Positions 33,801 through 36,800 of a stretch of DNA of 64,000 nt are shown piece after piece; the first letter of the stretch is position 1; every line of letters starts with the position of its first letter. The stretch is from NCBI GenBank assembly GCA_951406725.2, contig OX597830.1, positions 58,218,001-58,282,000 of the forward strand, in the 5' to 3' direction. The notes beneath the pieces were generated by a model. It had not been told where the DNA came from. It was given only the letters and a program-made list of their open reading frames with translations, and searched no databases. Position numbers and translations under genes: made by a program. Source of the stretch: Octopus vulgaris (lineage: Eukaryota).

Positions 33801-36800
33801 CATCAGATACAGCCGATTAGAGAAACAGCAAACATTTGTAAAAAACATTTCAAGGGTTTTCCATTTGAGGTCCCTGGGTGGGCATGTGCACAAAATCACA
33901 TATACATAGGTTATACACATACACATGCATCCAGACCGTATTGTATGTATGCACGTGTATAGGAGTGTGTGTCTGTGTGTGTGTGTGTGTGTGTGTGTGT
34001 GTGTGTGTGTTTGTGCATGCGTGTGCATGTGAAGCGGTTGGGCCATTATCAGCCGTTAACGCACTTTACCTTGCTCACATAACTCTCCTCGGTAGCCATC
34101 TAAACAGCGGCATTTCCCGACTTCTATACATTCTCCTCCATTGAAGCAACCGGGAGAACAAGAAGCTGCAAATAAAGAAATTGGTTTGAATTGCTATTAA
34201 AATTAATTAGTTAATGACTTACAGAATTAATGAAGAGATTAATTAATCAACTAATACTTTCTTAATACTCTAGTCTACGGGAAGAAAATATCGTATTTAA
34301 GATTCTATCTGCAAAATTTTAATTAAATTTTAAAGCAATTAACATCAGTGACATTAAAGTCTTGAACATTAAATGTTATTTCTTTATATTTGGTTGGTGC
34401 ATAATTATTGCGGCTTTTTTCCAATAAATTTTATCCAACAAAAACAATAACAACATTTAACAAAATGATTATTCCGGAGCATGTTCACGGAGTATATATA
34501 TATATATATATATATATATATATATATATATATATACGTACATACATACATACATACATACATACATACATACATACATACATACATACATACATACATA
34601 CATACATATATATATATATATATTTATTATATAGAAGGAGCTTCTACAGGACTAGAACTGTTTCATTCAAGAGAAATCTTCAGGAAGCTAGTTAACAAGA
34701 ATTGTATTGGCATTTATACATTTAGGCAGGTTTAAAGGGGTGTTGGTGGGGGACTTTTGGGGGGTAGGCATAGCGCAAAATATCATACTTGGGGGAGTGG
34801 TCAAGGAGTCAGTGTTAAATTAGATAGAAGAATAAAAAAAAAAGAATAAAAAAAATAAATAAATAAATAAATAAATAAAAAAAAAAATATATATATATAT
34901 ATAAAAATATATATATATATATAAAAAAAGGGGAAAAGAGTTTTAGGTAAATAAGGAGATTCTCACTTATACCTATGCACATATACACATATATATACAT
35001 ATACATATATACACACACATATATATACATACACATATACATACATACATACATACATATATGCATACATACACACACACATATATATATATATATATAC
35101 ATACATACACATACACATACCCATACATATATATATATACACACACACATATATACACATGCACATACTAATATCTCTACATACTCGCATATACATATAT
35201 ATATATATATATATATATATATATATACATATATATACATATACACATATGTATATGTGTGTATATGTATATATATGTATATATATATATATATGTATAT
35301 GCGAGTATGTAGAGATATTAGTATGTGCATGTGTATATATGTGTGTGTGTATATATATATATGTATGGGTATGTGTATGTGTATGTATATATATATATGT
35401 GTGTGTGTGTGTATGTATGCATATTTGTATGTATGTATGTATATGTGTATGTATATATATGTGTGTAAGTGTGTGTATATATGTAAATGTAAGTGTGTGT
35501 GCTTGTATGAGAATGTATGTATGTTTGCACACATGCATATGTGTGTGTATGTGTATGTATATATGTATATATGTATATATATATATATATATATATATAT
35601 GTATGTATATATATGTGTGTGTGTATATATGTATATATATATATATATGTGTATGTGTGTGTGTGTATATATGTGTGTATGTGTATGTATGTATGTATAT
35701 ATATGCGTGTGTATGTGTATGTGTATATGTACATATACGCGTACGCTCGTGTGTTTATGTATATGTAGGTACGTAGAGTTATCTATGTGTGTATTTATTT
35801 GTACATGTGTGTAAGTATGTATATATATATATGTGCATGTGTGTGTGTGTATATATGTATATGTATATATATGTGTATATGTGCATAGGTATAAGTGAGA
35901 ATCTCCTTATTTACCTAAAACTCTTTTCCCCTTTTTTTATATATATATATATATTTTTTATTTTTTTATTTTTTATTTTTTTAATTTTTTAATTTATTTA
36001 TTTATTTATTTATTTTATTTTATTTTTATTTTTTTTAAAATTCTTCTATCTAATTTAACACTGACTCCTTGACCACTCACCCCAAGTATGATATTTTGCG
36101 CTATGCCTACCCCCAAAAAGTCCCCCACCAACACCCCTTTAAACCTGCCTAAATGTATAAATGCCAATACAATTCTTGTTAACTAGCTTCCTGAAGATTT
36201 CTCTTGAATGAAACAGTTCTAGTCCTGTAGAAGCTCCTTCTATATAATAAATTAATTTTACTCTGCTATGTATTGAGTACCTTATTTACTGTGGTTAACC
36301 CCGAATCAACCCGGGACCTACATATATATATATATATATATATATATATGTATGTATGTATGTATGTATGTATGTATGTATGTATGTATGTATACAGGGT
36401 GGCCCGTAAGTCCCTACCCGTCCATATGTTATTATGTTATTCAATACGATTCCTTCCCGAACAAAAGTGATGTTTACGGACGAGTGCGCAGTTTACCGTT
36501 CGGGTCGGGCACGAAATATTTACTTCTCGGCAAAGGAGAATCTTCATCATTATGAAGAAATGCAATACAACACTCTGCATGTCATGATGTAGTGGTGGTG
36601 GTGGGGGGAGCACTTAATGTTACGCAGCGAAAATGAGGGACAGATACACTGGATGCATGAGATATATGGAAAAGTAGGGACTTACAGGCAACCCTGCATG
36701 TGTGTGTGTGTGTGCTTGTGGGTGTGATGAATATGCAATCTGATGACGGCGACCAGCCGAAAATTCGAAGTTACTATCAACTTGTAAAAGTTAATAAATA

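Follow-up and report, generated by a model that had tools for sequence, protein, structure and literature searches.

The foldback at 34622..36321 of the window, by which we mean the whole 64,000-nucleotide stretch of Octopus vulgaris DNA analysed here, is very probably a recent, truncated insertion of a high-copy Penelope-like retroelement (PLE), in which two element ends, each with a hammerhead in its pseudo-LTR, lie inverted to one another. The insertion was likely made from one uncut RNA that was copied twice from two fixed starts, and its hammerhead is predicted to be masked in the host pre-mRNA. This explanation builds on what was read directly from the genome, namely the parent element, the copy numbers, two fixed 3′ ends and the strict pairing of those ends. 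The preliminary description, made from the letters of the window, had not recognized the end of a high-copy retroelement here, a fact that accounts for the tail, for the foldback and for the identity between the arms.

The foldback carries two intact hammerheads

The whole insertion sits in (TA)n and has the form of a 5′-truncated, internally deleted, head-to-head pair of 3′ ends from a PLE of the Hydra clade. The right arm (35246..36321, plus strand), antisense to the host gene, consists of a 3′-UTR fragment, the pseudo-LTR and the tail; aligned to family copy L066, it begins about 1,070 nt past the parent's stop codon and lacks about 1.6 kb internally. The left arm (34622..35245, minus strand) is an inverted copy, sense to the host gene, that ends at the short, tail-less site and carries a further deletion relative to the right arm. 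Because several hundred nucleotides of the microsatellite-like body are missing from it, a feature on which the preliminary description did not remark, the window arms are not identical overall. Over 36040-36252 they differ at two places, both outside the ribozyme, and each arm has one difference from family copy L002. The window arms have in common a 40-nt junction that none of the other fetched loci contained. (TA)n adjoins each outer end, and the window copy itself has no ORF.

Within the right arm, a TATAAA at 36156..36161 (+) lies 29 nt upstream of the inferred RNA start at 36185, and its mirror is at 34718-34713 (−). Just ahead of the short end, the cut site falls within an 8-bp hairpin (36226..36244, +) that is a rival to stems I and III. 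The short end, the first of the two fixed 3′ ends, is at 36252 (mirrored at 34622) and closes the segment that begins with AATAAA at 36246 (+). The second fixed 3′ end is that of the tail (36253..36321, +), which finishes in a stem-loop with an A/C-rich loop; the preliminary description had given about 70 nt on the right arm only, and the tail is indeed one-sided and 69 nt long. In the parent the tail runs on (ATAT CCTAG...) toward the ORF. The flanks also mirror each other, with (TACA)n(TA)n at 34493-34621 and (TA)n(TGTA)n at 36322-36394, and the foldback thus extends past the element.

The type I hammerhead of the right arm lies at 36185..36235 (+), by sequence and by folding, and a letter-identical 51-nt copy is read from 34689 to 34639 on the minus strand of the left arm (34639..34689). 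In the right arm, with all parts on the plus strand, AGCTTC (36185-36190) and GAAGCT (36230-36235) form stem I and enclose the core CTGAAGA (36191-36197), stem II (36199-201/36206-08), GAAA (36210-36213) and stem III, in which ACAG (36213-36216) and CTGT (36225-36228) close an 8-nt loop. Cleavage at the GUA site is predicted after 36229, and between 34645 and 34644 in the left arm. The earlier claim of complete hammerheads, identical in both arms and with a 6-bp stem I, a CUGAAGA/GAAA core, an ACAG/CUGU stem III and a GUA site, is therefore borne out in every part. The CUGANGA / GAAA / NUH core and three helices are all present, with a weak helix II: in both motifs it has just three pairs (UUC/GAA), which had gone unremarked. 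A strict descriptor, with stem I of at least 6 bp and stem III of at least 4 bp, gave two matches in the window versus a mean of 0.03 across 60 shuffles of it, and the two hammerheads are not chance matches. A search of the whole window against Rfam at the gathering score gave no match. When loop 1-loop 2 contact was examined, the folds showed no stable extension of stem I, and an RNA beginning at 36185 would have no 5′ strand for one.

The minimal hammerheads of animal PLEs, as presented in the accessible text of Cervera and de la Pena 2014 (PMC4209133), resemble the window motif in their pLTR location, the extra nucleotide after A9, the palindromic helix III region and the many solo and opposite-strand pairs. 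The window motif departs from them in that its helix III has 4 bp and an 8-nt loop, and its helix II is short and weak and lacks the G10.1-C11.1 pair. The window also contains, at 47370-47415 (−; core at 47407), a third hammerhead-like motif that is unrelated to these two; its stem I has 6 bp and its stem III is minimal. It adjoins a (CA)n tract and probably belongs to another PLE family.

The insertion belongs to a young family of the Hydra clade

The 51-nt ribozyme has 1,343 letter-perfect copies in the genome. The right-arm end as query gave 998 candidate copies, and the best 40 of these 998, which were scored, were all near-identical, so that by its sequence the right-arm end is a very young dispersed repeat. 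The window locus is ordinary, one insertion among thousands, and nothing sets its copy apart from the 1,342 others. The flank of one copy, L028, carries a reverse-transcriptase/endonuclease fragment that gave 24,302 first-look candidates when used as query (150 of the 24,302 were scored), and in the fetched loci the same hammerhead follows an ORF at a distance of about 3.2-3.7 kb.

The plan of the parent element can be read at L067: a pseudo-LTR with hammerhead, the tail, the ORF, a microsatellite-like 3′ region (about 3.7 kb in the parent; 3,760 nt in L066), a second pseudo-LTR and again the tail. The L067 hammerhead (1589-1639) is sense to the ORF and upstream of its ATG at 1772, which is 183 nt from the ribozyme's first base. 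The open frame has 722 codons, 713 of them from the ATG, and includes YRDD. Across the fetched family loci the pseudo-LTRs are in partial tandem or inverted arrangement, with the tail at one end. Pfam searches with pieces of the ORF, the whole protein and 12 homologues returned no meaningful family, and PDB sequence and profile searches with the parent protein returned nothing meaningful. A model of the L067 protein (pLDDT 92.6) had telomerase reverse transcriptases (TERT) as its top five PDB fold matches (best E 8e-9). By eye, a GIY-YIG domain is recognizable as LVY...YIG with downstream R, H, E and N in the aligned homologues, and its core in the parent has a single Cys (no CCHH). The parent protein also has DKT, RWR where 8 of the 11 aligned homologues have RWK, a linker CNCPDKTTC (CxCX5C), a CxxC ahead of the E (CDLC..E) and a CxH past the N (N..CMH).

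Placed by these motifs and not by a tree, the window family is an EN+ PLE of the Hydra clade. It shares with the Hydra-clade elements, as far as the accessible text of Craig et al. 2021 (PMC8557442) describes them, the C-terminal GIY-YIG, the DKT, the CxCX5C linker, CxxC/E and N/CxH, and (TA)n targets, in which the insertions of the window family likewise sit. The type I hammerhead with a 4-bp stem III, the ctgaNgat...tgaa core and the inverted truncated copies are also common to both, and a 4-bp ACAG/CTGT stem III with GUA is frequent in the clade according to the same text. The window family differs in having RWR for RWK, an 8-nt loop III, and a length of about 6 kb, due to its 3.7-kb microsatellite-like 3′ region, versus mostly less than 3 kb for the members listed there, a usual length that describes the clade and does not define it. 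Compared by eye with Hydra-1_Obim, the published octopus member (as given in the accessible part of its source), the hammerhead and the N-terminus differ; we therefore take the window family to be a new family, by sequence, in a known clade. No earlier report of it was found in a search of mainly open-access literature.

Two other arrangements were seen among the fetched loci. L040 (G000:C7:109370000-109379900) is a tandem in which the tail directly precedes the microsatellite-like 3′ region, with no ORF, and may be a non-autonomous unit of about 2.5 kb. In the flanks of L012 and L036, another repeat with a CTGTTGAAGAG...CGAAACG hammerhead-like core adjoins the insertions across the (TA)n tract.

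Two fixed 3′ ends are strictly paired in foldbacks

The short end is present in 1,378 exact genomic copies, followed by (AT)n, and 2,535 copies read through the short site into the tail. On contig C1, between 1 and 87 Mb, 36 of 55 short ends lay back to back with a tailed arm no more than 12 kb away (chance 0.007 each), none of the 55 was paired with another short arm, and two loci were tail/tail; this count covers places up to 86.7 Mb among the matches listed, that is, 55 of 100 short ends and 100 of 100 tailed ends. Mixed pairs thus made up 36 of 38, versus 46% expected under random end use (p about 1e-10). Among the fetched loci, 32 of 34 foldbacks were tail/no-tail, where an arm counts as tail-less if no tail pattern was found in it, and the lone locus scored as tail-less on both sides (L099) was short/tail by BLAST. 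A foldback with one tailed and one tail-less arm is the normal product of the family. The accessible text of PMC8557442 gives an inverted truncated copy with a one-sided tail as typical of PLEs.

The two arms of a foldback also tend to carry the same loop-III allele, which was so in 32 of 33 foldbacks versus 18.7 expected, and in 17 of 18 foldbacks chosen regardless of the loop-III site (p 1e-4). These common alleles suggest that one capped, uncut RNA was copied twice from two fixed starts. We hypothesize that the GIY-YIG domain would nick both strands of the (TA)n tract, that the two nicks would prime reverse transcription on the same RNA, one from the tail end (36321) and the other from the short end (36252), and that the two cDNAs would be joined head to head. 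Our search, of mainly open-access papers, found no literature on double priming as a source of PLE foldbacks.

A biochemical parallel comes from PAc, a Poseidon element of Anolis carolinensis (Frangieh et al. 2024, PMC11167929). According to the text accessible for that work, both strands are cut and extended in vitro, the tail is the span between two reverse-transcription starts, the ribozyme is active only with the protein, and uncut RNA is the main template. PAc and the window family are alike in the two internal starts that bound the tail, in AT-rich targets, in a stem-loop at the distal start whose loop is rich in A and C, and in the use of uncut RNA. They differ in tail length (69 nt here versus 30-40 in PAc) and in the position of the ORF, which begins 183 nt after the ribozyme's first base here and inside the ribozyme in PAc; moreover, the starts of the window family overlap the target by 2-4 nt of AT, whereas those of PAc are reported as non-homologous. 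Twin priming of L1 (PMC11702581, as far as its text is accessible) likewise produces an inversion from two priming events on one RNA. The L1 cDNAs barely overlap, however, whereas here both arms are copies of one sequence, and the second start has a fixed position.

Other routes to the foldback were weighed against double priming of one RNA. The inverted arm might have arisen by snap-back, in which a tail-primed cDNA folded over at its (TA)-rich end and templated a return copy up to the short site, or the arms might have been homogenised after insertion; we consider such an origin rather unlikely, even though it explains the symmetric centre near 35245 and the private junction of the two window arms equally well. 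The AGCT palindrome at 36185-36188 is the midpoint of many mini-copies, as snap-back would allow, and gene conversion or cruciform repair could give the same allele concordance of the arms. Nevertheless, at five loci (L082, L084, L039, L069 and L073) the short arm is longer than the tailed arm, so snap-back of a tailed cDNA cannot be the general route. Solo short-ended copies (L092 and L101) point the same way, as does the single-base precision of the short end, which a priming site would show, and the accessible text on PAc has a PLE protein extending both strands from two starts in vitro (PMC11167929). That the foldback is an assembly or long-read chimera artefact is scarcely credible. A near-perfect palindrome in microsatellite-rich DNA would be a natural place for such an error, but a deletion, the tail and point changes set the two arms apart, dozens of loci repeat this asymmetric layout, and independent runs show the same three ends (places 1589, 1656 and 1729 of L067). 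It is also very improbable that the window locus represents a non-LTR retrozyme, in which a tandem repeat without coding sequence is cut into circles by its hammerheads. Retrozymes, in the accessible texts of PMC7229834 and bioRxiv 10.64898/2026.07.22.740005, are like the locus in being non-coding, with a type I hammerhead and an origin from PLE pLTRs, and the same family built a 271-bp tandem array elsewhere (L210). Retrozymes are head-to-tail tandems (PMC7229834), whereas the window locus is head-to-head: its ribozymes lie on opposite strands, so that no RNA would carry two in tandem, and its arms align to the 3′ UTR of ORF-bearing copies. Double priming of one RNA is thus the origin that we prefer for the foldback.

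The tandem array at L210 (G000:C8:91475000-91483300) has 29 exact anchors with a 271-bp period, and its unit comprises the TATA box, the hammerhead (in a palindromic loop variant), the tail and about 95 nt toward the ORF. The array is itself a foldback, tailed at the left end and short at the right. It is a retrozyme-like array born of an element of the window family, possibly from a circular or multimeric template. Elsewhere, L076-L135 (G000:C1) include many mini-palindromes of about 200 bp, built solely of one hammerhead with its tail and one that lacks it; the AGCT that opens stem I is often their centre.

Copied RNAs appear to start at stem I

Among 60 sampled arms, some of which are the two arms of one insertion, 27 start at 36184-36189 and none at 36230. 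Among 30 arms that run on toward the ORF, nine start at 36185-36188 and nine reach past 36040; reported ends at 36080-36115 were mostly indel polymorphisms and not true ends. The 5′ ends of genomic copies therefore concentrate on the base that opens stem I, with the TATA box 29 nt upstream. In a hand tally of 100 of 122 matches with AT-rich DNA before the joint, the base before A36185 was G in 62, C in 21 and A in 17, the junction pattern having left out the native T by design. After ATAT it was G in 37 of the 49 junctions listed (also tallied by hand). The extra G follows unrelated flanks and was seen at the same joint in run X16. In L1 an extra 5′ junction G marks copies that reach the cap, according to the accessible text of PMC11702581, and by analogy the extra G at the start of stem I is likely a copied cap; a search of mainly open-access papers found no literature on a cap-derived G in PLE copies. 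The hot spot might instead reflect a 3′ splice site formed by the stem I TAG, a reading that we set aside as less likely, since the copies keep the AG and add a G after unrelated sequence.

From the pile-up of starts, the upstream TATA box and the extra G, we infer that the RNA is capped, has its 5′ end at stem I and serves as template without being cut. The element's own promoter would start this RNA at the first base of stem I, which would make the extreme 5′ end of the element RNA the natural place of the ribozyme. A 5′-terminal ribozyme would cut rarely unless dimerised or aided by the element's protein.

The 5′ ends of genomic copies showed no pile-up or clear excess at the cut site, whether in the sampled arms, in AT-adjacent starts or by tally. 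AT-adjacent starts numbered 36 at the cut site versus 66 at a control position, many of the latter being single-base variants. Exact starts numbered five at 36230 and five at 36234 in a hand tally of 100 of 133 rows (about 53 places), and two TA-overlap sites had 17 versus 10 starts; hairpin-driven junctions or an internal deletion account for several of the 17. At one locus, L160/L161, both arms start exactly at the cut site, suggesting that some cut RNA may be copied.

We tentatively propose a fuller scheme, which we rate as possible and not as probable. The TATA promoter would give a capped RNA from the first base of the hammerhead, and one dimeric protein would make two copies of this one uncut RNA, beginning at the tail site on one DNA strand and at the short site on the opposite one, yielding both the strict tail/no-tail foldbacks and the hundreds of hammerhead-only mini-palindromes. 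The ribozyme would serve as a 5′-terminal decapping switch, held off by the rival hairpin and active as a dimer in tandem derivatives that become retrozymes. The origin of tandem and inverted PLE structures and the role of their hammerheads were named as open questions in 2021 (PMC8557442, accessible text). The family offers countable signatures (strict tail/short pairing, same-template arms, the cap-like G, the lack of a pile-up at the cut site and the retrozyme-like array), each of which is a direct prediction for a PAc-type in vitro system. The locus itself matters little; a young family with open-frame copies likely records how Penelope-like elements are copied and, if this is true, would preserve in the genome a fossil record of the Penelope mechanism, which is still unsolved.

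The hammerhead is predicted to be masked in the host intron

The host is a minus-strand gene with a LamG-like exon (recognized by eye, with no Pfam hit) and EGF exons (Pfam). Three exons with AG/GT ends were placed on the minus strand, at 38418-38505, at 37931..38038 (the EGF exon upstream of the insertion) and at 34070..34165 (the EGF exon downstream), the 3′ splice site of the last being 456 nt from the element's left end. The splice 38418-38038 was seen in one contig of sequencing run X10, and host exon was covered in one of four runs, as assembled contigs. Exon positions and splice ends put the element in the intron between the first two EGF exons, which agrees with the preliminary description in making the minus-strand copy sense to that intron; as also stated there, the antisense arm is transcribed first, which follows from the minus-strand host gene.

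Activity and masking were read from nearest-neighbour folding, which ignores tertiary contacts, proteins and kinetics. In the trimmed 51-nt RNA, stem I formed with a probability of 0.98 and stem III of 0.54, and the full active shape made up 2.6% of the ensemble. In the construct 36170-36250 that had been proposed for in vitro transcription, stem I fell to 0.016 and the active shape to 5e-4, and the left arm with local flanks likewise gave 0.05% active shape; these low values arise because the 8-bp hairpin at 36226-36244 covers the cut site. For RNAs beginning at 36185, predicted stem I was 0.98 at 55 nt, 0.29 at 62 nt and 0.12 at 137 nt. The stem III region is palindromic, with a predicted dimer at -27.0 kcal/mol versus -17.0 for two monomers, and the common loop variant (10 of 20 commonest-type copies) is more palindromic still. 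In the host pre-mRNA, all 51 ribozyme nucleotides were predicted to pair with the antisense arm once the ribozyme is made. The arm-to-arm duplex of the unique 212 nt came to about -391 kcal/mol, with about 570 arm-to-arm pairs overall.

It is hence quite improbable, in our estimate, that monomeric cleavage by the sense-arm hammerhead severs the nascent host intron and so lowers or alters expression of the EGF gene. The core is intact, the GUA site is present and the orientation is sense to the host. Loop III, at 8 nt, exceeds the 1-3 nt of the Hydra-clade ribozymes listed in the accessible text on that clade, so that stems I and III are available to the trimmed 51-55-nt monomer, and monomeric cleavage is known for those fungal PLE ribozymes that have a large helix III (PMC4209133, accessible text). 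Against this, the antisense arm is made first and pairs with the whole ribozyme, the active shape is rare even with local flanks only, stem II has three weak pairs, and the copy is indistinct from its 1,342 counterparts. The animal PLE ribozymes tested so far are inactive or weak as monomers, or need protein, in the accessible parts of PMC11167929 and PMC4209133. Together, the antisense pairing, the low active shape and the weakness of animal PLE monomers make cutting of the host intron unlikely. The earlier ranking of this locus as the best candidate for monomeric activity is accordingly weakened by the rival hairpin, the rare active shape and the favoured dimer, and the suggestion that it could cut the nascent intron loses ground to its own alternative, masking by duplex formation with the other arm, with which the computation agrees.

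The folding thus predicts a hammerhead that is masked, not cutting, in the host pre-mRNA. If either copy is unmasked, this is more likely in transcripts that run outward from the arms' own promoters. The likeliest effect on the host at this locus is a long intronic double-stranded RNA together with short promoter-driven transcripts outward from each arm; long intronic double-stranded RNA is a likely substrate for A-to-I editing, and insertions of the window family would put such RNA into introns.

Other features lie in or near the host gene. An AATAAA at 34628-34623 (−), sense to the host and followed by (UA)n and (UGUA)n, is a possible early polyadenylation signal 456 nt before the host 3′ splice site. 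In another intron of the host gene, a 335-codon frame at 38533-39540 (+) has a Pif1 helicase 2B domain (E 4e-16) and is presumably a Helitron-like fragment. Elsewhere in the window, the segments at 14011-14508, 14808-15269, 23543-24022 (−) and 62234-62761 (+) are fragments with a likeness to the C-terminal zinc-knuckle/endonuclease part of non-LTR retrotransposons.
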